Source: Bacteroidales bacterium
GTDB taxonomy: Bacteria; Bacteroidota; Bacteroidia; Bacteroidales; UBA10428
Length of the DNA stretch: 64,000 nucleotides
Direction: 5' to 3'
Assembly (NCBI GenBank): GCA_035299085.1
Contig: DATGXG010000026.1
Span: 10,568-74,567, forward strand
This document shows, in pieces, positions 6,404-59,812 of this stretch. The notes beneath the pieces were generated by a model. It made no database searches. It was not told the origin of the DNA and saw only the letters and a program-made list of their open reading frames with translations. The position numbers were made by a program, and so were the translations under genes. How positions within the stretch are numbered: the stretch's first letter is position 1; the number at the start of each line of letters is the position of its first letter.

Positions 6404-8455
6404 TCAAAAGTTTTCGAAATCCTTGTCTGATGAAGCCACAGTCCCCAAAGTTTTCTTTGGTTCATGATGAAGGGTTTCCCTGATTTTAGAAGAAGCAGCC
6501 TTAGTTTGAGTTGCGTGTTTTTTGAAATTGTTTTCCCCGTACTTTTTCTGGATTTTATCTTCATCACCAACTTTGAAATAGGCGACAGCTTCTTTCAATG
6601 TTTCAGCCTGAGCGGATAGTTCTTCGGCACTGGTTGCCATTTCTTCAGAAGATGCAGCATTTTGCTGGGTAACGATATTCAATTGTTGAATGGCACTGTT
6701 TATCTGGTCAGCTCCTGAATTCTGCTCAACACTTGCTGCTGTAATTTCCTGGACCAGTTGTGAAGTTTTCTGTATTTCCGGTACCAAAGCCTCGAGAGAT
6801 TCGCGTGATTTTTCGGTAATCTTCAGACTATTCCTGGACAGGCTTTCAATTTCATCAGCTGCCAGTTTGCTTCTTTCAGCCAGCTTACGCACTTCAGCAG
6901 CCACCACAGCAAATCCGCGTCCGTGTTCACCGGCTCTTGCCGCTTCAACAGCTGCATTCAAAGCAAGAAGATTTGTCTGGAATGCGATATCATTAATAAT
7001 TGTTATTTTTTCAGCAATAGTCTGAATGGTGTCAAAACTTTCCCTTCCTATTTTGCTCATTTCTATCATACTATCGGTTGCCTTTCCGGAAATGTTCTCG
7101 GTTTGCCTTGCATTATCGGTATTTTGCTGGATATTGCTGACCATTTCTTCCATCGACGAAGAGATTTCCTCTGTAGATGAAGCCTGTTCAGTGGCTCCCT
7201 GTGATAACTGCTGTGAACCATTGCTGATTTGTGAACTGGCAGCGGCAATACTGTCGGCACCTGTTCTGATATTCAGCACAATTTCCCTCAATTTATCGAG
7301 CATTTGTGTAAGAGAATCTGCCAGATCTCCTATTTCATCATGCTGATCAACTATTAATGTAGCTGTAAGGTCGCCGCGTGAAATTTTCTTTGCAAATTCA
7401 ACACCCTGTTTAAGTGCACGGGTTATAGAACGGCTTAATGCAACAGTAATGATAATAAATATTCCTATTCCGATAAGTACTGCAACAAGAATGGCATATG
7501 TGGTTCTTCTTACAATTTTCAGAAATTCATCCTGGAAGATACTAGCGGCAACATATGATTCAATTTCAGGTAGATATTTATAATATTGTTTTTTAACTCT
7601 GCCTTCCCAAGAGTATTTTCCTGATCCATAGCCGCTCTTGTCATTTTGAAGCTGCTTGAAGAATTCGCTGTCTTTTTCGTTTGAACCTTCCTTGGTTGGA
7701 TGGATTATTAGGTTACCGGTATTGTCAACCAAAAAAGGATATCCTGAATCGAAATACTTTTTTGAACTAAAGTATTCTTTCAGAGAACTCATATCTTTCT
7801 CCGGTGTTCCTGTTGCCACTACCAGTTGTGTCCCGTCATTGAGTGTAAAACCTTTATAAGCTGTTAAATACCACTCGTCTAATACAACGGCACGGTCAAC
7901 AAATTCTTCGCCTTTGTCAAGCGCTAAAGCAACAGGTGAATCATTAGGAATCAAAGTATTAATTGCCCGGTTGCCATCCTTTTGGATAACAGATGTTGAG
8001 ATCCTGACATATCCGGCGTTTGTTTTTTGAAGAATGGTACAGACAACACCGGTTAGTTTAGAAACTTCATCCACATAAGTAGTACTATTATATAAACTAT
8101 TGCCATTAATTGTTACTTTTTTAATCTGAAGTTGCTGAACTTCTTTTGTAGACTGGTTTTTAGCTTGTATATCAAAAGATTGTCCGGTTGAAACCACATG
8201 GTTGTTTGTAAAAATCAGGTCAATTCCTACATCAGTGGCGCGCCTGGTTGTGTTTTGACCCTGTTTGATCTGTTCTTTAATAATTGAAGCCAGATCATTC
8301 ACCTGTTCAAACATTCGGGTATCTGTGTCATTAACAAGCTGCCTTCTTTGTGAGGTTATAGTATAAACCCCCAGCAACGAAATGATGACCACAAAAGCAA
8401 GGTTGAAAACAAGGTTCAACCTTGCACCAATCTTTAAATCATTTAATTTTTTCAT
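6404..8455 (-). CDS. Methyl-accepting chemotaxis protein with a large periplasmic Cache-like sensor
   Basis: 683 aa. TM1 ([18 protein letters not shown]), a roughly 280-aa extracytoplasmic domain with Cache-like motifs ([26 protein letters not shown]), TM2, HAMP ([13 protein letters not shown]), and an MCP signalling hairpin ([40 protein letters not shown]). Confidence 0.9.
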
Positions 8456-17523: not shown

Positions 17524-19803
17524 ATGAAACACAACTACATCTTCGCCTTACTTATCTCAACCCTGTTTAACCTAATTTTTGAATACAACTGTTATTCACA
17601 AACCAAACTTCATGTAGATGCAGAATATATAAAGGATGTTGTTTCGGATATTGCTTCCGACGATTACCAGGGTCGTGAAACCGGTACTGCCGGATGTGTT
17701 ATGGCCGAAGATTATTTTGCTGCCGAACTGCAGAAACTGGGCCTGAAACCAGCCGGTGATTCAGGTTCCTGGTTTTTTAATTATTCAATTCCAAAAGAGG
17801 AGTTTGACCTGACAGCAGGACTTACGATCGACAACAGGTCATTCTTCCAGGGATATAATGAGGATTTTTCAGTAGTTTATAAAAGTGAGCCCGGTGATGT
17901 CCAGGGTGATATTGTTTTCGCCGGTTATGGTATTTATAACCCGGAAAAAAACAGGAATGATTTTGATACGCTTGACCTTAAAAATAAAATAGTTTTAATG
18001 AAGCGAGGTGCCCCGCGTAATGACATACAGTCTTGGATGCCTTCCTGTATCGATTCGGTAAAGGCAGCATACTGTTACGAACACGGTGCTGTGGGAGTGT
18101 TATTTTATGAACCGCTTATTCGCACAAATCAGCGCATTCTGAAACCAACTTTTGGAAATCACCTGGCTATGGTAAGGGTAATTCCCTGTTTCCCTGTGTT
18201 TTCAATTGATGAGCGGGTTGTGCGGTTTATTTTTTCGCAAATGGGACAGTCGTATTACCGCATTAACAACTTGATTGAAACCCAGCCCGAATCCTTTGCA
18301 ACGAAAAGCACCTGTCATATGTCGGCTAGCGGTAAAAAGAACCAGTCGATTCATACCCGCGATGTACTGGGAATGATAAAGGGAACGGACAGGACTCTGA
18401 AAGATGAATTTATCGTTATAGGAGGGCATATTGACCATCTTGGCGCAGACGAACACGGAAAATTATGGAACGGAGCTGATGATAATGCCTCCGGACCTGC
18501 AGTTGCCCTTGGAATTGCCAGGGCTATGATCATGAACAAGTACAAACCCAGGCGGAGTATAATTTTCGCCGCATGGACCGGAGAGGAGATGGGGCTTCTG
18601 GGTTCAAAGGCATGGTGTGACCGCCCAACTGTTGATGCATCAAAGATTGTTGTATATTTCAATCTGGATATGGTAGCCGTAGGAAATGGAAAACTAAATA
18701 TGCCCGGCACTGCTTACGGTCCCGAACTGGCTGATTTCATTAAGGAAAATTTGGACACAGCCCTTCTCAGGAACATCATTTGGAGTGACGGAGGTATTTC
18801 GGGAAGCGATCACAGTAACTTTTTAAATCTTGGAATACCAGCATTTGCAGGGATGACAGCTGGTTCACATCCCGATTATCACCAGCCTGGCGATGATCCT
18901 GAAAAAATAAGTAAACCTGTGCTTCAGTTCACTGGCGATTTTATTGCTGCCTGTGTTACCGCAATTGCGGACAGCCGTTCCGACTTTAACCGCCTGGCAC
19001 GACAGGAGGAAAACCAGATGAGACTTATGTCATTTTCATTCTATCAGCCAATCAGTTTATCATCATGCAATGAAAAATTAAGTGAAACTAATTTCAGACA
19101 GGGACTTGTGAATTTCTCCAAATCACAGCCTTCCGCAGATCAGAATGCAAACTTCATCGGTTTATTAGCGGATCTTGACAGTGCGCTGCAAAAAAATAAC
19201 AACAAGTATGTATTTTCCACAAGTGCCTACGATGCGATGATGACCCGTGAAGGATTGCTTGCGGCTTTCAATCCCGCCGATGTCGGCATGGATGATCTGA
19301 AATTAAAAGTACTTGCAAGCCAGGGATACCGCATTGCCATAGTCGACAGCAAAAATGTAATTTGTACTGATACGGCCAGGATGAGACACTTTTTGACTAT
19401 TTGCCATCAAAACGGCCTGGGTGTAATTCTGAATAACTTACCTGTGCCCTGCCTGGAAGCCATCACATCCGAATCCGTTGATCCGGTGTTGATAATGAAT
19501 TCCGAATTTCTCAGCGACCGGATATTCAGTAATATCAAAGCCAAAGGCCACCTCATCATATTTGCATTGAAAAACAATGATATCATAAACCAGGAAAACA
19601 GAAATTTGGCCAGACTGATTGAACTGGCCGGCGACGATCATATTCTGATTTGTCCTTCGGATCTTGCTCCTGAAGATTTGCGGTACCTCAAAATGTTTGT
19701 CAGGCAGTACTCAAAGTCCGCTAAGGACAAGTCGCTGCAATATAAATTATTGAATGATAATTTCCGTGATTTTGCGGTAAAGTCGATGCAGCCGAATCTT
19801 TAG
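17524..19803 (+). CDS. Secreted M28-family aminopeptidase with a PA domain and a roughly 270-aa C-terminal extension of unknown function
   Basis: 759 aa. Signal peptide. M28 metal-ligand contexts GGHIDHLG, DDNASG, TGEEMGLLGS, NLDMVA and GSDHSNF. Residues from about 490 to the end have no motif I recognise. Confidence 0.8.
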   Translation: MKHNYIFALLISTLFNLIFEYNCYSQTKLHVDAEYIKDVVSDIASDDYQGRETGTAGCVMAEDYFAAELQKLGLKPAGDSGSWFFNYSIPKEEFDLTAGLTIDNRSFFQGYNEDFSVVYKSEPGDVQGDIVFAGYGIYNPEKNRNDFDTLDLKNKIVLMKRGAPRNDIQSWMPSCIDSVKAAYCYEHGAVGVLFYEPLIRTNQRILKPTFGNHLAMVRVIPCFPVFSIDERVVRFIFSQMGQSYYRINNLIETQPESFATKSTCHMSASGKKNQSIHTRDVLGMIKGTDRTLKDEFIVIGGHIDHLGADEHGKLWNGADDNASGPAVALGIARAMIMNKYKPRRSIIFAAWTGEEMGLLGSKAWCDRPTVDASKIVVYFNLDMVAVGNGKLNMPGTAYGPELADFIKENLDTALLRNIIWSDGGISGSDHSNFLNLGIPAFAGMTAGSHPDYHQPGDDPEKISKPVLQFTGDFIAACVTAIADSRSDFNRLARQEENQMRLMSFSFYQPISLSSCNEKLSETNFRQGLVNFSKSQPSADQNANFIGLLADLDSALQKNNNKYVFSTSAYDAMMTREGLLAAFNPADVGMDDLKLKVLASQGYRIAIVDSKNVICTDTARMRHFLTICHQNGLGVILNNLPVPCLEAITSESVDPVLIMNSEFLSDRIFSNIKAKGHLIIFALKNNDIINQENRNLARLIELAGDDHILICPSDLAPEDLRYLKMFVRQYSKSAKDKSLQYKLLNDNFRDFAVKSMQPNL

Positions 19804-19804
19804 G

Positions 19805-19930
19805 ATGAAATCGTTTGAATGAATCGTTTGAATGAAATCGTTTGAGTAACTTCTTTCAAACTCTTTTTCAAACTCTTTTTCAAACTTCTTTCAAACCTTT
19901 TCTTTAAACAGCGAAGCGTTCAAACTTCTT
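19805..19930. repeat. Composite tandem-repeat element A: 3 x ATGA(A)ATCGTTTGA followed by 4 x T(C)TTT(T)TCAAAC, plus degenerate tail copies
   Basis: Seen directly. Left array 19805..19845, right array 19851..19896. Tail copies are CTTTAAAC at 19902..19909 and GTTCAAAC at 19918..19925. The GTTTGAA core of the left units is the reverse complement of the TTCAAAC core of the right units. The element fills the gap between convergent genes. Confidence 0.85.
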
Positions 19931-25985: not shown

Positions 25986-26114
25986 AAGCGCAAGAATCCA
26001 AACTATGATCGCATCGCGATGGCTATCGAATATAATAGTCATCATTTCAAAGAGCAAGCCGATCTCGACCAGGTGGCATCCATTGTAAACCTGAGTGAAC
26101 CTTTAAACCTTTAA
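25986..26114 (+). pseudogene. Remnant of an AraC-family HTH domain (first helix-turn-helix only), truncated by repeat element B
   Basis: The frame starting at 25986 reads KRKNPNYDRIAMAIEYNSHHFKEQADLDQVASIVNLSEPLNL*. This matches the AraC-family pattern (hydrophobic-x-x-Y-I-x-x-H-F-x-x-x-I/L-x-L-x-x-L/V-A-x-x-x-x-L/M-S). There is no upstream start or N-terminal domain, and the frame dies inside the CTTTAAAC repeats. Confidence 0.35.
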
Positions 26115-26145
26115 ACCTTTAAACATTGGAACCTTTAAACCCTTG
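26097..26145. repeat. Repeat element B: GAAC-CTTTAAAC x3 in tandem plus one spaced copy
   Basis: Seen directly. CTTTAAAC at 26101..26108, 26109..26116, 26117..26124 and 26133..26140, with GAAC preceding at 26097 and 26129. Confidence 0.8.
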
Positions 26146-26253: not shown

Positions 26254-28029
26254 ATGAAAAACGGACAGGGGTATACAAAAATAATCAATTGGTTTTCAGA
26301 TCGTTTTAATCACAGGCAGCAAATGTATGTGTTTAGCCTGTTCATTGGCATTGTCAGTGGGCTTGCCGCGGTGCTGCTTAAAAACACGGTTCATTACACT
26401 CACCAGTTTGTTCTTAAGTATGGTGGCTATTTCCAGATCAACTTCCTTTACCTGGCCTTTCCGATGCTGGGAATCCTGCTTACCGTCTTATATGTAAAGT
26501 ACCTGGTAAAAGATGAAATGGGTCACGGAATAACCAAAGTTCTCTATTCTATTTCAAAAAAGGGAGGTTTTCTAAGGCCTCATAACAGCTATTCTTCCAT
26601 TATTGCTTCAACACTGACAGTGGGTTTCGGAGGATCTGTCGGACTTGAATCGCCTATTGTGGTTACCGGGTCCTCCATGGGATCGAGCCTCGGAAGGCTT
26701 TTCGGCATGAATTACAAATCCATTACAACACTTATTGGCTGTGGTGCTGCAGGCGCAGTTGCCGGTATCTTCAAAGCCCCTGTAGCCGGTGTTGTTTTTG
26801 CACTGGAAGTGCTGATGCTTGATATCGGTGTGTGGTCGATTATTCCGCTATTGATATCGGCTGTAACAGGTGCCACAATATCTTACCTGTTCCTTGATCC
26901 CGGCGTTTCGCTGCATTATCCTGTTCAGGGCAATTTCAACCTGCACAATATACCTCTTTATATCGTTCTCGGTCTTTTTGCAGGTATCGTTTCGCTGTAT
27001 TTTACAAGGATGACCTTTTCAATTGAAAAACTCTTTGCAAAAATCGGCAGCCGGACTACACGGTGGATTATCGGCGGCCTGGTGCTCGGATTACTTATTC
27101 TTTTTCTCCCTTTACTTTACGGTGAAGGTTATGACATCCTGAATGATTTTCTCGAAGGTAATATCAGTTCAATCACCCACGGGAGCATATTCAGCGGCCA
27201 TGAAGGCAGTTTATGGTATTTTGTTGTCTTCATGGTGCTCGTACTTTTGTTCAAGCCAATAGCCATGACTGCCACAACCGGTGCCGGCGGGGTGGGGGGA
27301 ATATTCGCTCCTTCCATGTTCATGGGCGGTTTCACGGGGTACCTGGCTGCAAAACTCCTTAACCAAATCCACTTTATCAACGTACCGGAACAGAATTTCA
27401 TCCTGAGCGGCATGGCCGGATTAATGGCCGGCGTCATGCATGCCCCGCTTTTTGCCATCTTTCTCATTGCTGAGATCACAGGTGGTTATGTGCTGTTTAT
27501 CCCGTTAATGATTACCTCTACAGTTTCCTTTATTACCATCCGTTATTTCGAACCTCATTCCATTTACACACACCGGTTGGCAACGCGCGGCGAACTGATC
27601 ACTCACAACAAAGACAAAGCTATACTCACCCTTTTGGACATGGATAAGCTGATCGAAAAGGATTTCGTGCCTGTTACCCCGGCTGATTCACTAGGCAAGC
27701 TCGTAAAGGCTATTTCCCGTTCAAAAAGAAACTTGTTCCCTGTAATTACCGGCAAAAACATCCTGGTAGGTGTTGTATTGCTCGACAGCATCCGCCATAT
27801 CATTTTCAACAGTGAAATGTACAACCAGGTTTTTGTGCGCGACCTGATGCAGCCTCCTCCCACTCACATTTCGCCGGGTGATTCAATGGAAAGCGTCATG
27901 AAGAAATTCGAGGATAATGAAGCCTGGAACCTTCCGGTTGTAAACAACGGAGAATACATCGGCTTTTTATCCAAGTCGAAATTATTCTCCTATTACCGCA
28001 ACTGGTTGATAGAAATTTCGGAGGATTAG
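26254..28029 (+). CDS. ClC-family chloride channel / H+-Cl- antiporter with a C-terminal CBS pair
   Basis: 591 aa. About 10 TM helices. ClC selectivity motifs GGSVGLESP and GVGGIFAPS. The C-terminal tandem CBS region starts at about residue 455. Confidence 0.9.
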   Translation: MKNGQGYTKIINWFSDRFNHRQQMYVFSLFIGIVSGLAAVLLKNTVHYTHQFVLKYGGYFQINFLYLAFPMLGILLTVLYVKYLVKDEMGHGITKVLYSISKKGGFLRPHNSYSSIIASTLTVGFGGSVGLESPIVVTGSSMGSSLGRLFGMNYKSITTLIGCGAAGAVAGIFKAPVAGVVFALEVLMLDIGVWSIIPLLISAVTGATISYLFLDPGVSLHYPVQGNFNLHNIPLYIVLGLFAGIVSLYFTRMTFSIEKLFAKIGSRTTRWIIGGLVLGLLILFLPLLYGEGYDILNDFLEGNISSITHGSIFSGHEGSLWYFVVFMVLVLLFKPIAMTATTGAGGVGGIFAPSMFMGGFTGYLAAKLLNQIHFINVPEQNFILSGMAGLMAGVMHAPLFAIFLIAEITGGYVLFIPLMITSTVSFITIRYFEPHSIYTHRLATRGELITHNKDKAILTLLDMDKLIEKDFVPVTPADSLGKLVKAISRSKRNLFPVITGKNILVGVVLLDSIRHIIFNSEMYNQVFVRDLMQPPPTHISPGDSMESVMKKFEDNEAWNLPVVNNGEYIGFLSKSKLFSYYRNWLIEISED

Positions 28030-28030
28030 T

Positions 28031-28098
28031 AGCCCCGGCCTTAAGGCCGGGGACTATAAATCCGGGTCATCCATTGCCCCCGGCCTTAAGGCCGGGGC
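28031..28098. repeat. Twin perfect 20-nt palindromes CCCCGGCCTTAAGGCCGGGG (probable bidirectional terminator hairpins)
   Basis: Seen directly at 28033..28052 and 28078..28097, separated by 25 nt. They lie between the convergent ClC and DUF4389-like genes. Each can form a 10-bp GC-rich stem if the hairpin loop forms within the central TTAA. Confidence 0.8.
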
Positions 28099-28105
28099 TA
28101 TTGAA

Positions 28106-37515: not shown

Positions 37516-38538
37516 ATGAAATTAACCATCCTCGGTATCGAATCGTCCTGTGATGATACATCTGCTGCCATAATTGAAGACGGTCTGCTGCTTTCAAATA
37601 AAATTGCCAACCAGCAGGTACACAAAGAGTATGGCGGTGTAGTGCCCGAGCTTGCTTCGCGTGCTCACCAGCAGAATATAATACCGGTTGTTGACGCTGC
37701 TTTGAAGGAGGCAGATTGTACTGTTGCGGATATAGATGCCATTGCCTATACAAGGGGGCCCGGATTAATGGGTTCACTTCTGGTAGGTTCTTCATTTGCA
37801 AAAGGACTATCATTATCGCTCAGGGTTCCTCTTATTGACGTAAACCATCTTCTCGCTCATATTCTTTCTGTTTTCATACTGAAAAGTGAAAATGAAAAAC
37901 CGGTTCCCCGTTTTCCGTTCCTTTGCCTTGTAGTATCGGGCGGCCACACCTTGCTTGTGGTGATGAAGGATTACCTGGATATGCATATCATAGGACAGAC
38001 AATTGATGATGCTGCAGGTGAAGCGTTTGACAAGTGTGCCAAGGTGATGGGCTTTCCTTACCCGGGTGGCCCGTTAATCGACAAGTACGCGAAAGAAGGG
38101 AATGCAAACGCATTTGAATTTTCCAAAGCATCTGTAAAAGGCTTGGATTTCAGTTTCAGCGGGCTTAAAACATCATTCCTGTATTTCCTTCGCGACAGGA
38201 TGGCAGAGGACAGGGAATTTATGGCGAATAATACGAATGACTTGTGCGCTTCAATTCAAAAGGCCATTATCGATTCGCTCACACGCAAACTCGTTAAAGC
38301 GGCAGGAGAAACAGGGATTCATGATATTGCCGTTGTGGGCGGGGTTTCGGCTAATTCAGGACTCCGACAGGCAGTGTATGAACTGGGTGCCAAACGGAAG
38401 TGGAATGTGTTTATACCTCCGCTGCAGTATGCAACTGACAATGCAGCCATGATTGCAATCACAGGGTATTATAAAGCAAGACAGTTTCAGTACTCATCTC
38501 ATAATCTAACCCCGGTCGCCCGTTTTGATCAGTTTTGA
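37516..38538 (+). CDS. tsaD: tRNA N6-adenosine threonylcarbamoyltransferase
   Basis: 340 aa. ILGIESSCDDTSAAII, HxxxH metal site (NHLLAHIL) and VVSGGHT. Confidence 0.93.
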   Translation: MKLTILGIESSCDDTSAAIIEDGLLLSNKIANQQVHKEYGGVVPELASRAHQQNIIPVVDAALKEADCTVADIDAIAYTRGPGLMGSLLVGSSFAKGLSLSLRVPLIDVNHLLAHILSVFILKSENEKPVPRFPFLCLVVSGGHTLLVVMKDYLDMHIIGQTIDDAAGEAFDKCAKVMGFPYPGGPLIDKYAKEGNANAFEFSKASVKGLDFSFSGLKTSFLYFLRDRMAEDREFMANNTNDLCASIQKAIIDSLTRKLVKAAGETGIHDIAVVGGVSANSGLRQAVYELGAKRKWNVFIPPLQYATDNAAMIAITGYYKARQFQYSSHNLTPVARFDQF

Positions 38539-38829
38539 GCTAAAATAACTGTTCGTCAAAATAAATGTACCGTTGGTCAATTTTATAACCGCCTTTATAA
38601 TAATTAGTGAAACCGTAAACCAGCCATTTTTCCCGTTTATATCGGTTTCGGTCAACTGGCTTGGAACAAGGGATGCAGACATGATAAAACATTGAAAAAA
38701 GCCTCTGCGCTGTAGTACGGAATTTTATTATAAATTTGTTACAGCCGATCTTTTTTTTGGATTTATTCAGAAACATTTTGATTTTGTGGGCGTATAGGCT
38801 ACACACACGATTTATCATACAGCGATTTT

Positions 38830-39204
38830 ATGGATAACCTGCTGATCGAAAGTACCAAAAAAACACCTGATGTTGCCTTCAACAAAGATGGCAGAATGAG
38901 GATCAGCGGTCGTTCCATTCCTGAAGATGCTTCCAAGTTTTATGATGATCTTTTTGAGTGGGTTTATTATTATTGTCAAAATCCGCCTGAATCCACAACT
39001 ATTGATATTGAACTTGAGTATTTCAACAGTGGATCTTCAAAAGCATTGCTTCATATTTTAAGGGCCCTCAAGGATATTGTAAGAAAAGGCAATAAGCTTA
39101 CAATTAACTGGTATTACGAAGAGGGAGATGATGACATCATGGAAAGAGGGGAATACTACGAATCCATCCTCGAAATCAAATTCAATTTTATTCAGACGGA
39201 TTAA
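38830..39204 (+). CDS. DUF1987 / SiaC-family protein
   Basis: 124 aa. LLIESTKKTPDVAFNKDGRMRISGRSIPEDASKFYDDLFEWV...IELEYFNSGSSKALLHIL...INWYYEEGDDD matches my memory of the DUF1987 pattern (TP-V-F ... G-S-PE ... LEYFNS-S-K). Confidence 0.7.
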   Translation: MDNLLIESTKKTPDVAFNKDGRMRISGRSIPEDASKFYDDLFEWVYYYCQNPPESTTIDIELEYFNSGSSKALLHILRALKDIVRKGNKLTINWYYEEGDDDIMERGEYYESILEIKFNFIQTD

Positions 39205-39208
39205 AGAA

Positions 39209-39331
39209 GTGACTAGTGACTGGTGACTGGTGACTGGTGACTGGTGAAGGCCGGGGCTATAGGTATCCGGTATCCAGTATTCAGTATCCAGTATCCAGTA
39301 TCCGGCATCCGGCATCCGGTATCTTTTTTTT
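39209..39331. repeat. Composite tandem-repeat element D: about 5.5 x GTGACTG, spacer AGGCCGGGGCTATAG, about 8.7 x GTATCCR, then T8
   Basis: Seen directly. Heptamer array 1 at 39209..39247, spacer 39248..39262, heptamer array 2 at 39263..39323, T-run 39324..39331. ACTGG in array 1 is complementary to CCAGT in array 2. This gives 5-bp helices separated by 2x2 mismatches. Confidence 0.85.
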
Positions 39332-39362
39332 GCACTACCTTTACATTTAAACACCAATCGTT

Positions 39363-40463
39363 ATGAATAATAAGGTAATAGGCATGAAGTTGTCGTTCCT
39401 GCTCCTGGCAATAATTCTTTTATTGTATGCCCTCATTATGGCTAAGGAGTTTCTTTATCCTCTTACCTTCGGAATCCTGATATCTTACCTGCTTTACCCT
39501 ATTGTTAATTACCTTGAGAAAAGAGGTTTTCCCCGTATTTTCTCAATTCTTGTACCTATTATTCTCGCTGTAGCCATCGTGGCTATCATTGCCATAGCGG
39601 TTGTTAAAAGAATGAACCTGTTTCTGGACGACCTGCCACAATTTAAGGAGAAAACCATTGAACACCTAACAATCATCCAACAATACGTGGAAAACAATTT
39701 CGGGGTGTCGGCAAGCCGACTTAAAAATTTTATAGTGAACAGTATTTTCGACCTCGGCAAGCAATCGGGAAAACTATTTTCAGCTACAACCGGAACACTT
39801 TTCGCCCTTTTCATGCAGCCTGTTTATGTTTTTTTGTTCCTTTATTACCGTACAAAGTTTGCTTACTTCATTCTTCAGCTGACTGGCAGGGAATACAGGC
39901 TTATAACCATTAATATCTTAAGAGAAATCGCAACAGTGGTAACACGCTATATGCTGGGTGTAACCACAGTGGTGTTTATCCTGTGCTTCTTTAATTCATT
40001 AGGACTGCTGATTATCGGGTTGAAATATGCGCTCCTGATCGGGGTTATCCAGGCCCTATTCAGTTTTATTCCGTATTTCGGTAATGTGATCGGAGGAGCC
40101 ATGACATTGCTGTTCGCGTTGCTTACCCAGGATTCCGAGGTCATTGCCATCCGCATCCTTGCTTTTGTTTTCATCGTGCACTTTTTTGAAAATAATCTAC
40201 TTTCTCCCTATATAGTCGGGAATAATATCAGGCTTAATCCTTTTGTTATAATTATCGGACTTATAGCAGGTGCTATGATCTGGGGAGTTCCGGGCATGCT
40301 GGTTACAATCCCTTTTCTTGCCATGCTGAAGATAATTCTCAAAAGAATACCCCGTCTGGAACCCTATGCATACCTGCTGGGAACCCGTGGTACGAAGCGG
40401 CATGCTCTGACGAGGCAGAATTTGATGAGGTTCCTGGGGAAATGGAAGAAAAAGTCCGTTTGA
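39363..40463 (+). CDS. AI-2E family transporter (PerM/UPF0118)
   Basis: 366 aa, about 8 TM helices. Characteristic C-terminal region IPYFGNVIGG...LSPYIVGNNIRLNPFVIIIGLIAGAMIWGVPGMLVTIP. Confidence 0.85.
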   Translation: MNNKVIGMKLSFLLLAIILLLYALIMAKEFLYPLTFGILISYLLYPIVNYLEKRGFPRIFSILVPIILAVAIVAIIAIAVVKRMNLFLDDLPQFKEKTIEHLTIIQQYVENNFGVSASRLKNFIVNSIFDLGKQSGKLFSATTGTLFALFMQPVYVFLFLYYRTKFAYFILQLTGREYRLITINILREIATVVTRYMLGVTTVVFILCFFNSLGLLIIGLKYALLIGVIQALFSFIPYFGNVIGGAMTLLFALLTQDSEVIAIRILAFVFIVHFFENNLLSPYIVGNNIRLNPFVIIIGLIAGAMIWGVPGMLVTIPFLAMLKIILKRIPRLEPYAYLLGTRGTKRHALTRQNLMRFLGKWKKKSV

Positions 40464-40470
40464 TCAGGCT

Positions 40471-40658
40471 AAATGGTTCCAAATAGTTCCAAATAGTTCC
40501 AAATGGTTCCAAAGTGGTTTAAACGTGGTTCCAAATGGTTCCAAATGGCTCCAAAGTGGTTTAAACGTGGTTCCAAATGGTTCCAACAAGGTAACCTTGA
40601 AACAACCTTGAAACAACCTTGAAACAACCTTGAAACAACTTTGAAACAACTTTGAAAC
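40471..40658. repeat. Composite tandem-repeat element E: decamer array AAATGGTTCC (with a 42-nt higher-order duplication) followed by 6 x AAC(C/T)TTGAAAC
   Basis: Seen directly. Decamer-based array 40471..40584, containing two 42-nt super-units at 40501..40542 and 40543..40584. 11-mer array 40593..40658. Together they fill the whole convergent gap between the AI-2E gene and the cyclase gene. Confidence 0.85.
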
Positions 40659-40664
40659 AAATTT

Positions 40665-42062
40665 TTATTCTTCCACTATCAGATTCCTGATGCGTTCAAT
40701 CTGAAGTTGTTTATTAACCTCACGCAGATTACGGGCTGTTTCAGTAAAGTACTGGTGCCCGCTGATAAACTTTACCTGCATGCTGTTCCAGTCCTTAAGT
40801 GATTTTATTTTTGATCGTTCTTTCAGTTCCATGAAAAGCAGGTTTGAAACGGGGATCATATCACTTCTTCCAAGGTAATCGAGGTCTGCATCACACATAA
40901 TTTTCTCAAGCTTATTGGCTGGTCGGGGAGGCAGTTTGGTAGCCATGATCAGTTCACAGATTAAATCAATCTGTGCCGTAGTATAATAATATTCAGTGAG
41001 CATTTCCCGTGCCACAAGGCAGCTGAAGTATTCATGATTATCATACGATATGGTATGCCCGGCGTCGTGGAACAAAGCAGCGGTTTTCAGTAACAGCAGC
41101 TCTTCATCAGTCACACCTTCCCCGATTCCGATGAGTTCCACCTGGGTAACCACATCCACTGTATGTTTTATATTATGATAAAACAGACTGGGCGGCAATT
41201 CTTTTTCGAGCTTATCGAGTAAATATTCCTGTAAATCAGTGAACTGTATCAACCCAAAACGCAGGCTGAATTTTTTGTTTGGAATAATCCCCTTGCCCTG
41301 TAAAGAATAATCTGTCTTAATGCTTTTTACCGAATAGAGGGTGATTTCACCTTCATATTTAACCGGCATTTTTTTATAATACTCACAATTGAACAGGTCT
41401 TTTACAAGTTCGTATGTAGTAGCTGATATGAGTATTTGTCCTTCTTCACAAAATTGCCTGATGCGGGCGGCATGGTTAACTGTTTCGCCTTTAACCTCAT
41501 AATGAGGTCGTTTTTTACCGCTTACATCGGCAATTACTGTTCCTGTATGTATTCCGATCCGGAGTTTCCAGATATTGCTGAACGCATTGGTGCGTTGCAG
41601 ATCCCTGAAAAAGTATTGCATTTCAATAGCCGCCAGCAATACTTCTATCGGATTGGTTATATTTTTCTGCGGAATACCTCCTACAAGCATGAGAGAATCG
41701 CCGATTGTACGGATGCTGCGAACCGGGAACTTGGTTACTACCTGCTGAAGCTTGATAAAAATTTCATCAAGTGAATCCACATAAAGTTTTGGATCCTGTT
41801 GGGATGTAATTTGTTCAAAACCGATCACGTCAGCATATAAGACAGTTGCAGTCTTAAACCGCATTACATGCGATTTCTTTTCTGTGCCCGGCTTTGTTGA
41901 AATTTCATTTTTACCCAGTTTATTGAGGAGGACTTTATATTTTTCTATTTCCTGCGAAAGGAATTCATTTTGCCGGTTCAGTTTTTCATTCTCGGAAGTA
42001 AGGGATTTATTCTGAGAAATAATTTCTGCAATGTGCTTTAATATACCTGTTTTTCTGGGCAT
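40665..42062 (-). CDS. Coiled-coil + class III adenylate/guanylate cyclase + HD-domain fusion protein
   Basis: 465 aa from the ATG at 42062. N-terminal heptad-rich segment (SENEKLNRQNEFLSQEIEKYKVLLNKL). Cyclase motifs VLYADVIGFEQIT, IRTIGDSLMLVGG, RIGIHTGTVIADVSG and KGETVNHAARI. C-terminal HD motifs YHNIKHTVDV and AALFHDAGH. Confidence 0.8.
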   Translation of the reverse strand: MPRKTGILKHIAEIISQNKSLTSENEKLNRQNEFLSQEIEKYKVLLNKLGKNEISTKPGTEKKSHVMRFKTATVLYADVIGFEQITSQQDPKLYVDSLDEIFIKLQQVVTKFPVRSIRTIGDSLMLVGGIPQKNITNPIEVLLAAIEMQYFFRDLQRTNAFSNIWKLRIGIHTGTVIADVSGKKRPHYEVKGETVNHAARIRQFCEEGQILISATTYELVKDLFNCEYYKKMPVKYEGEITLYSVKSIKTDYSLQGKGIIPNKKFSLRFGLIQFTDLQEYLLDKLEKELPPSLFYHNIKHTVDVVTQVELIGIGEGVTDEELLLLKTAALFHDAGHTISYDNHEYFSCLVAREMLTEYYYTTAQIDLICELIMATKLPPRPANKLEKIMCDADLDYLGRSDMIPVSNLLFMELKERSKIKSLKDWNSMQVKFISGHQYFTETARNLREVNKQLQIERIRNLIVEE

Positions 42063-44181: not shown

Positions 44182-44237
44182 CTTACGAAGTCATTTAATT
44201 TCATTTTTTTTCATTTATTTTGCGCAAAATTATTTTT

Positions 44238-44803: not shown

Positions 44804-44897
44804 AGTTTCATGTTGTTTCATATGTTTCAAATTGTTTCAAATTGTTCTGAAACTACTTTGAAACTAAATGAAACCATATGAAACAACTTTGAAACAT
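44804..44897. repeat. Composite tandem-repeat element F: 5 x GTTTCA-containing units, then 5 x TGAAAC-containing units, forming a long imperfect hairpin
   Basis: Seen directly. GTTGTTTCATATG (44812..44824) pairs perfectly with CATATGAAACAAC (44875..44887). Inner GTTTCA/TGAAAC blocks also pair. The element lies between convergent efp and fabI. Confidence 0.85.
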
Positions 44898-52146: not shown

Positions 52147-52176
52147 AAAAAAAGGCGCCTGAGGCGCCTTTTTTAT
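52147..52176. terminator. Bidirectional rho-independent terminator
   Basis: AAAAAAAGGCGCC-TGA-GGCGCCTTTTTTAT. An 8-bp stem (52152..52159 / 52163..52170) flanked by an A-run and a T-run, between convergent genes. Confidence 0.75.
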
Positions 52177-52827: not shown

Positions 52828-53080
52828 ACGTCATTGCGAGTAAGAACACCTTTTTAAAGATCACCCGGTGAAATGACAACATATTTACACAGAGGTTCAC
52901 AGAGGCACCACAGAGGTTCACAGAGAAAAAATCTGTTTTCTCAGTGGTTCTCTGTGTCTTCTCAGTGGTTCTCTGTGTAATAATGGTGAGGAAAAACAAA
53001 TCGTCATTAGTAGGAGCATGACTGAAATATGGATTTAGTATTGCTTCGCCTCCGCAAGAACCCGTGGCTCGCAATGACGT
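52828..53080. repeat. Inverted-repeat-bounded element G (253 nt): termini ACGTCATTGCGAG / CTCGCAATGACGT enclosing CACAGAG / CTCTGTG arrays
   Basis: Seen directly. 13-nt perfect terminal inverted repeats at 52828..52840 and 53068..53080. Inside, 4 x CACAGAG (52888..52924) face 2 x CTCAGTGGTTCTCTGTG (52940..52977). ATTGCTTCGCC at 53040..53050 resembles a motif in element H. Confidence 0.75.
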
Positions 53081-58046: not shown

Positions 58047-58083
58047 AAAAATCCCCGGGAGATGGCCGGGGATTTTCTTTTTT
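58047..58083. terminator. Bidirectional rho-independent terminator
   Basis: AAAATCCCCGG-GAGATGG-CCGGGGATTTT. An 11-bp stem followed by CTTTTTTT, and preceded by an A-run that serves the opposite strand. Lies between convergent amtB and trpB2. Confidence 0.8.
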
Positions 58084-58101
58084 AACCGTGTAGGTAAAGC
58101 A

Positions 58102-59594: not shown

Positions 59595-59812
59595 ACGTCA
59601 TTGCGAGGAGCTTGAATCACAATGATTATAGTACCAATTAATCGCGACGAAGCAATTTGCCCGCACTGGCAGAACTCTGCAAAAAGAAACAGGTGTAAAA
59701 TGTTACTTTGGAATCTGTGCTCTTTGAAGCGCCCTTCCTGTTCTGGTAGATTGCTTCGTCGACTTTTAATACTGCTATAATCAATTATAAATCAAGCTCC
59801 TCGCAATGACGT
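59595..59812. repeat. Inverted-repeat-bounded element H (218 nt): 21-nt perfect termini ACGTCATTGCGAGGAGCTTGA / TCAAGCTCCTCGCAATGACGT with nested internal inverted repeats
   Basis: Seen directly. Termini at 59595..59615 and 59792..59812. Nested pairs are TGATTATAG (left) and CTATAATCA (right), and CGACGAAGCAAT (59645..59656) with ATTGCTTCGTCG (59750..59761). It shares its first and last 13 nt with element G. Confidence 0.8.

Follow-up and report, generated by a model that had tools for sequence, protein, structure and literature searches.

What role can be ascribed to two different heptamer arrays that lie between the stop codon of one gene and the promoter of the next? The question is raised by element D, found between two co-oriented genes in a 64,000-nt stretch of Bacteroidales DNA (the window, meaning the whole stretch that was analyzed; G+C content 42%), the relatives of which are uncultured Bacteroidales MAGs. 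Genes are taken from a simple ORF map of the window and named after their Pfam assignments, and the locus is laid out as follows.

37516-38538, + strand: tsaD (ORF map and Pfam)
38830-39204, + strand: SiaC family gene (DUF1987), 124 aa, upstream of D (Pfam PF09345, E-value 3.5e-37)
39209-39247, + strand: array 1, GTGACTG x5.6 with first unit GTGACTA, 5' arm of the predicted hairpin (Tandem Repeats Finder, period 7, score 71, 96% matches)
39248-39261, + strand: GC-rich spacer AGGCCGGGGCTATA, 14 nt, forming an apical stem with the first unit of array 2 in the predicted fold
39262-39323, + strand: array 2, GGTATCC x8.9, 3' arm of the predicted hairpin (Tandem Repeats Finder, period 7, score 75, 89% matches)
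39324-39331, + strand: run of eight T (T8), candidate terminator U-tract, seen in the sequence and kept in the sister species (L038)
39336-39343, + strand: TACCTTTA, Bacteroidetes-type -7-like box (TAnnTTTA, aligned on TTTAC), conserved, 4 nt past T8
39342-39349, + strand: TACATTTA, overlapping TACCTTTA and reading TACATCTA in the sister species (L038)
39363-40463, + strand: AI-2E family transporter gene, 366 aa, downstream of D (Pfam PF01594)
40665-42062, - strand: class III cyclase-HD gene (ORF map and Pfam)

Array 1 begins 4 nt after the SiaC stop codon, and array 2 includes the unit variants AGTATCC, AGTATTC and GGCATCC. The JGI gene call for AI-2E is a 359-aa form starting at 39384. Heptamer repeats are recognized by at least three head-to-tail 7-nt units in non-coding DNA, and D carries 5.6 and 8.9 such units in the SiaC/AI-2E gap. 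Tandem Repeats Finder and the sequence itself place the arrays, T8 and TACATTTA where the original prediction had put them, and the ORF map and Pfam likewise agree that D is flanked by two genes of the + strand; the spacer is present and GC-rich as described, but measures 14 rather than 15 nt. Two-unit patterns of either array match five times in the 64-kb window (0.18 expected), always within D. D is a real feature and not a product of chance. Within these 64 kb its units do not form a dispersed family, the remaining loci using different units, and a permissive Rfam search of 36-46 kb returned no match at D and only sub-threshold chance matches to hairpin-like models at two further arrays (E and F, below). 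An exact look-up of the - strand ORF that spans D (39058-39357), aimed at additional assemblies across D, gave no record. The 291-nt tsaD/SiaC gap contains a 92-aa ORF without Pfam match (38540-38818, - strand), which may not be real since it is called as a gene in a Logan contig and not in the JGI contig of the sister species.

RNAfold predicts a + strand structure of -49.7 kcal/mol for positions 39200-39345 (z -2.35; 6 of 200 shuffles are equally stable), and the - strand of D folds at -39.9 kcal/mol. In the best + strand fold, ACUGG of array 1 pairs with the CCRGY motifs of array 2, and four 5-bp ACUGG/CCAGU helices are separated by 2x2 loops with U opposite U and G opposite A, which reproduces the segmented hairpin of the original prediction. 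D thereby has a stable predicted stem-loop downstream of a stop codon, as is characteristic of intrinsic terminators. Array 2 exceeds array 1 by about three units, and its last three units lie outside the main stem, the base of which is 15-22 nt upstream of T8 in the best fold; a 4-bp mini-hairpin (CCGG-CAU-CCGG) stands between them, 4 nt from U8. An alternative fold closed by the last CCGGU brings the base to 3 nt from T8 and is 2.4 kcal/mol worse than the best. The description of D as a terminator-like hairpin with T8 is reasonable, given that T8 is kept in the sister species and that canonical terminators occur in the window, but in the minimum-energy fold the main stem does not abut the T-run. 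A simple terminator scan of the sequence did not list D, and the window holds 45 runs of at least seven T on the two strands. Pairing in many registers, also proposed originally, survives to the extent that alternatives exist; register shifts cost about 3-8 kcal/mol, the ensemble is almost wholly in one register, and the others are hardly populated at equilibrium. The + strand advantage of D (12.9 kcal/mol) was considered as a sign of RNA-level function and set aside, being mostly compositional (null -8.1 +/- 3.4, p about 0.07).

The reading favored here, with moderate confidence, is that D would represent a rapidly evolving hairpin, built by slippage and accompanied by a U-tract, at the 3' end of the SiaC transcript, belonging to a local class of paired-array hairpins at gene ends, formed around a REP-like terminator relic and sitting at an inversion junction. 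The closest rival arises from the arms themselves. In a permuted-unit null, array 2 was swapped for arrays of a randomly permuted unit, by which tandem structure and composition are kept; 26-28% of these arrays are as stable as D, and 16-17% form as many pairs between the arms. The complementarity of the D arms alone is therefore not above chance for two GC-rich heptamers. (Reversing, complementing or reverse-complementing array 2 was tried as a control and replaced by this null, as it is uninformative for D, the units of which are near self-similar under those operations.) D may accordingly be neutral microsatellite filler in a lineage that gathers 7-12-nt intergenic arrays by slippage, its arms partly complementary by chance and without a role in transcription. 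Consistent with such an origin, series of non-complementary arrays lie upstream of AI-2E in five relatives (L007, L008, L028, L029 and L030), units are species-specific and lengths change freely, and heptamer arrays of no particular sequence turn up commonly among public viral contigs (6 to 67 stretches for each unit tried). Polymerase slippage has been put forward as the cause of the excess of heptamer repeats in bacteria (Mrazek 2007, cited by PMC4679880 and PMC4692102). This account is possible, though we regard it as the less probable one; it is opposed by the exact placement of D between a stop codon and a conserved T8, by a spacer apparently derived from a terminator-type palindrome and by the class of elements to which D belongs, which as a whole is complementary far beyond chance and enriched in convergent gaps.

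The window holds five such paired arrays, namely D and the following four.

19794-19909: A, ATGAAATCGTTTGA / TTTCAAACTCTT, in a convergent gap (tandem-repeat search)
40471-40660: E, AAATGGTTCC x11 / AACCTTGAAAC x6, taking up all of the convergent AI-2E/cyclase gap
44805-44896: F, GTTTCAAATT / TGAAACTATA, in a convergent gap
52888-52978, - strand: G, a paired array in a co-oriented gap

The permuted-unit null yields p<=0.01 for the arm complementarity of A, F and G and p about 0.04 for that of E on the - strand; E and F of the sister species (L038) and a pair in a further relative (L046) are significant as well. E folds at -37.4 kcal/mol on the + and -60.3 kcal/mol on the - strand, and the asymmetry between strands, as a raw difference not set against a compositional null, is far larger for E and for the sister E and F than for D. 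Three of the five pairs (A, E and F) lie in convergent gaps, so that paired arrays are found in three of six convergent gaps as against none of 12 divergent ones (Fisher p about 0.03), the remaining convergent gaps containing ordinary hairpins. Among arrays with a Tandem Repeats Finder score of at least 50, 10 of 12 are intergenic, while intergenic DNA makes up 7.4% of the window. Two of these are canonical terminators, AAAAAAAGGCGCC-TGA-GGCGCCTTTTTTATTT at 52148-52174 and CCCCGG...CCGGGG with a T-run at 58048-58085. These examples of a hairpin followed by a T-run indicate that the genome uses such terminators and that the paired arrays occupy places expected for them.

Two further kinds of intergenic element were observed in the window. 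A single array (AACCTTTA x5.5, 26098-26141) lies in a 318-nt divergent gap without a complementary partner, and its unit resembles those of E and F. The elements at 52829-53079 and 59596-59811 share a 12-14-nt terminal inverted repeat, (A)CGTCATTGCGAG; they have unrelated interiors and long hairpins, are MITE-like in appearance, and the first of them contains array pair G.

The spacer at the center of D matches a palindrome found elsewhere. The segment AAGGCCGGGGCTAT (39247-39260) equals the right half of a REP-like palindrome, CCCCGG(CC)TTAA(GG)CCGGGGCTATTGAA, and is identical to the right half of TAGCCCCGGCCTTAAGGCCGGGGCTA, a perfect GC-rich palindrome of which two copies (28029-28101) occupy a 76-nt convergent gap and fold at -58 kcal/mol. 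A 12-mer of the spacer recurs exactly at 28090-28101 (0.14 expected), and AAGGCCGGGGCTAT aligns with CCCCGGTTTGAAAACCGGGGCTATTGAA in the SiaC/AI-2E gap of a relative with the ancestral gene order (L045). Judged by these matches, the palindrome at 28029-28101, its relative in L045 and the D spacer look like a REP-like family. We infer that a REP-like terminator palindrome has left its remnant in the center of D and that the arrays would have extended to either side of this remnant; ACTGG is similar in sequence to the lost 5' arm and CCGG(C/T)AT to the 3' arm CCGGGGCTAT. REP elements of Escherichia coli stabilize upstream mRNA and can terminate transcription. In the comparison with REP/BIME elements D matches by its spacer only, which is half of a GC-rich palindrome recurring in convergent gaps (a 14-nt half of CCCCGGCCTTAAGGCCGGGGCTA, found twice at 28 kb and once in L045); it differs in having no more than this half and in that its arrays are not copies of a dispersed consensus. 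A doubled palindrome of a different GC-rich family (GGGACATGTCATGACATGTCCC; L041, 12781-12821) is seen in the efp/adh convergent gap of another relative, where the window has F.

How stable is D over short evolutionary distances? The original prediction held that a change in copy number could tune read-through into AI-2E, and copy number is indeed not fixed, being x5.6/x8.9 in the window and x4.6/x2.4 in a sister species (JGI contig L004/L038). The DNA of this species is 86-89% identical to the window, its SiaC protein is identical and its gene order unchanged. Its form of D consists of a GTGACTG-like array (x4.6), ATCCAGC ATCCGGC ATC (x2.4), one G and T8, without the spacer. It differs from the window by two indels, one of 51 nt and one of 13 nt, while T8 and the promoter region are conserved. 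D thus shows the length variation among close relatives at one locus that is typical of heptamer repeats. The short form folds weakly (-16.7 kcal/mol, z -0.36), which implies that a strong hairpin is dispensable in the sister species. E and F are found there in unchanged places with different copy numbers and partly different units, those of F (GTTCCATATT x7.6 / TGAAACAACTT x5.7) resembling the E units of the window; the sister E folds at -37.6 (-) against -21.6 (+) kcal/mol and the sister F at -59.1 (-) against -33.4 (+) kcal/mol. A TCATT x6 array (TCATTTATTT x3) between uvrB and efp (44191-44221) has equal copy number in L038 (15220-15250), unlike D, E and F. From this comparison D appears to be a young, lineage-specific element that changes its length several-fold between sister species.

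Variation within populations is relevant to a second alternative, the conjecture that D is a tunable or phase-variable attenuator in which gain or loss of heptamers, or the choice of register, would set read-through from SiaC to AI-2E. Besides the difference in D between sister species, this could draw on samples SRR5823596-602, the contigs of which are 100% identical to the window within genes: E has two extra units in SRR5823600 (Logan) compared with SRR5823601, SRR5823596 and the window, and in five run assemblies the Logan contigs break off inside D, ending at 39237 or starting at 39290, although D contains no repeated 30- or 31-mer. Coexisting length variants would produce such breaks, which are equally explained by a loss of coverage over the hairpin and are to be taken as a lead rather than a finding. 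No D variant was seen within a strain, AI-2E has a conserved promoter box of its own, and registers other than the best carry the cost given above, which together make an attenuator unlikely. The position of the repeats points the same way: phase variation uses repeats in a reading frame or between promoter elements, while the D arrays lie between a stop codon and a T-run.

The promoter box itself was delimited in an alignment of AI-2E upstream regions from 11 sources, anchored at the start codon. All 11 share a conserved TAnnTTTA-C box (TAAATTTAC, TAATTTTAC, TATCTTTAC). A -7 box had been placed downstream of T8 at TACATTTA; this sequence is present, but the conserved box is the overlapping TACCTTTA, and the sister species has the degraded form TACATCTA in place of TACATTTA. 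In all relatives, those without arrays included, the AI-2E box comes after a T-rich stretch, so T8 could be a terminator tail, a part of the promoter region, or both. As the arrays lie wholly upstream of the conserved box, a change in their length would leave promoter spacing unaltered.

The same region is array-rich across the clade, with species-specific units. L041 has GTTTAATC x3.8 upstream of AI-2E, and L007, L008, L028, L029 and L030 have CAACTAA, CCTAACAG, TGCAGTCA, GCACATTA, GTTTTGCA or ATCTGCA; the neighboring arrays tested in L007, L008 and L029 are not mutually complementary under the permuted-unit null. In L046/L047 the transcribed strand reads (AATCAGT)n, spacer, (ACCAATT)n, TTTCTTTTT and promoter box, a layout as in D with significant complementarity. 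The pair is located at 1751-1853 of L046 (3292-3394 of L047) as a hairpin of AATTGGT x5 and ACTGATT x5. On the transcribed strand a T-run comes next and then the AI-2E box, and the TAACTGA heptamer of MacGregor (2015) occurs within part of the pair. Homology between its units and those of D was considered and is too ambiguous to call, because the two arms are near-complements of each other.

In nearly all relatives arrays immediately precede the AI-2E box, irrespective of which gene lies on their other side, and this invites a third alternative, in which D would be a promoter-upstream, protein-binding or DNA-structure element modulating the AI-2E promoter, as proposed for heptamer repeats of Nostoc and Beggiatoaceae. 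The arrays in question are CAACTAA (L007, L008, L028), ACCAATT (L046) and ATCTGCA (L030), and deletion of heptamer repeats altered recO promoter activity in reporter assays (bioRxiv 10.1101/2022.06.06.494920). The units are entirely different between species, which leaves no common binding site, repeats spaced 7 bp apart do not keep phase with the DNA helix, and the gaps of L041 and L043 are short with few or no arrays; a promoter element is accordingly improbable.

Comparison of gene order places D at a rearrangement. In five relatives with SiaC 89-95% identical (L041, L043, L045 and L046/L047) the genes run tsaD+ SiaC+ AI-2E- cyclase- uvrB+ efp+ adh-, and their SiaC/AI-2E gaps measure 30-161 nt and contain no arrays. 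The distant MAGs L007 and L008 have the cyclase gene and then AI-2E on one strand, in agreement with this order. Since AI-2E is on the opposite strand in relatives, it was inverted in the common ancestor of the window and the sister species, with D and E at the two junctions. Both inversion-bearing species have AI-2E in one orientation, and no inverted repeat shared between the D and E regions was found in either; nothing therefore points to an invertase cassette, and a site-specific invertible cassette for AI-2E was rejected as a candidate. L040 has no AI-2E gene; its 678-nt gap is occupied by an element whose terminal inverted repeats are long and GC-rich. A recombination or cruciform hot spot at the DNA level, by which D and E would have caused the inversion or belong to such a cassette, could appeal to their presence at both junctions and to the loss of AI-2E and gain of a TIR-bounded insert in L040, but is highly improbable given the lack of a shared inverted repeat, the single orientation in both species and the T-run and promoter region, which moved with the gene and so suggest that part of D was inherited rather than made by the break.

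The 3'-end hairpin reading can then be spelled out. Replication slippage would have extended two heptamer arrays, one to each side of what is left of a REP-like, GC-rich terminator palindrome. In the + strand transcript of SiaC, ACUGG of array 1 would pair with CCRGU of array 2 to give about 39 pairs in 5-bp segments, followed by U8, and the hairpin would most likely act as an intrinsic terminator and as a block to 3' exonucleases at the transcript end. D would insulate AI-2E, the conserved promoter box of which stands 4 nt after the T-run. The element is confined to the lineage with inverted AI-2E, where it forms one junction and E the other. Slippage as the generating process, termination and insulation are what we infer from features that can be read directly, namely the arrays, their predicted fold, the paired-array class, the change in length from one species to the other, the inversion and the spacer's origin.

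Several observations argue for a terminator. D starts 4 nt past the SiaC stop codon and ends in a T8 that the sister species conserves while 64 nt of array and spacer differ. Paired arrays are enriched in convergent gaps, A, F, G and others are complementary beyond chance, and the higher-scoring arrays are mostly intergenic (10 of 12). A fold that reaches within 3 nt of U8 lies just 2.4 kcal/mol above the best, the spacer matches a palindrome of convergent gaps at 28 kb and in L045, and a comparable architecture exists in an unrelated viral contig (L063). Against this stand the complementarity of the D arms taken alone (p 0.17-0.28), the 15-22 nt between main stem and U8, the silence of the terminator scan, the weak fold in the sister species, the possible membership of T8 in the promoter region, the frequency of T-runs and the mostly compositional strand asymmetry.

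Set beside known systems, D combines familiar things, intrinsic terminators and heptamer microsatellites, and is not a new kind of system. With intrinsic terminators, including the bidirectional ones of convergent genes, it shares a stem-loop directly past a stop codon followed by a T-run, and A, E and F likewise fill convergent gaps. An intrinsic terminator is one short GC-rich inverted repeat, whereas the D stem has about 39 pairs in 5-bp segments drawn from two tandem arrays; its main stem is also 15-22 nt from the T-run in the best fold, and its length differs several-fold between sisters. STRR are heptamer repeats of heterocystous cyanobacteria. Like these and other long simple sequence repeats of 5-11 nt (GGGAATC, TAACTGA), D is intergenic and varies in length and sequence among close relatives. 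In the STRR, GGGAATC and TAACTGA families one unit occurs at many loci, while here each locus has its own unit and the pairing of two different complementary arrays at gene 3' ends is the rule. GGGAATC belongs to Xanthomonas, where occasional inverted pairs are able to form stem-loops (PMC4692102), and TAACTGA to Beggiatoaceae, Cyanobacteria and some Bacteroidetes (PMC4679880). Simple-sequence contingency loci resemble D in having slippage-prone tracts near a promoter, and E varies between samples; they use 1-5-nt units in a reading frame or between promoter hexamers, whereas D lies past a stop codon and upstream of the box, and an on/off consequence of its repeat number is not evident.

Public viral contigs provide a wider background. 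(GTGACTG)3 is found in 19 IMG/VR stretches, two permuted controls in 11 and 67, and (CCAGTAT)3 in 6; GTGACTG was thus discarded as a special, widely used motif. At five of 83 distinct sites the unit recurs as an inverted array no more than 120 nt away, as opposed to none for the reversed-unit control, and related high-GC viral contigs carry (GTGACTG)n...(CAGTCAC)n with a fold of -72.8 kcal/mol. GTGACTG arrays paired with complementary arrays were observed in seven IMG/VR contigs (L048, L049, L053, L060, L064, L066 and L063). The last of these (7788-7870) reads (GTGACTG/GTGATTA)x6, TTTT, (AATTACG/AATCACG)x4 and CTTTTTT, a D-like layout with imperfectly complementary arms and a closing T6. Intergenic heptamer repeats and their variability have been described (PMC4679880, PMC4692102, bioRxiv 10.1101/2022.06.06.494920). 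A search of the literature for paired-array terminators, in Bacteroidetes or elsewhere, found no account of them; it yielded heptamer-repeat papers and the one remark on inverted GGGAATC arrays in Xanthomonas.

A broader and rather doubtful extension, offered as speculation, is that paired complementary microsatellite arrays might be an undescribed general route to new or altered 3'-end hairpins in bacteria and phages. Where a rearrangement has made a new gene junction, or around an old terminator relic, slippage would extend two arrays. Pairing would be kept by selection while terminator strength drifts or is tuned quickly, and D, E and F would be evolvable terminators of this sort, born after the AI-2E inversion.

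If the hairpins do terminate or stabilize transcripts, this lineage would have terminators made from microsatellites rather than from fixed inverted repeats, and terminator strength would differ several-fold from one sister species to the other, possibly also inside populations. D and its relatives would then illustrate how new 3'-end signals are provided once a gene has been inverted. If the arrays are mere slippage debris, they mark a lineage with unusually active turnover of intergenic repeats. Paired arrays break short-read assemblies at gene ends, and they could serve as high-resolution strain markers for this uncultured group of Bacteroidales.
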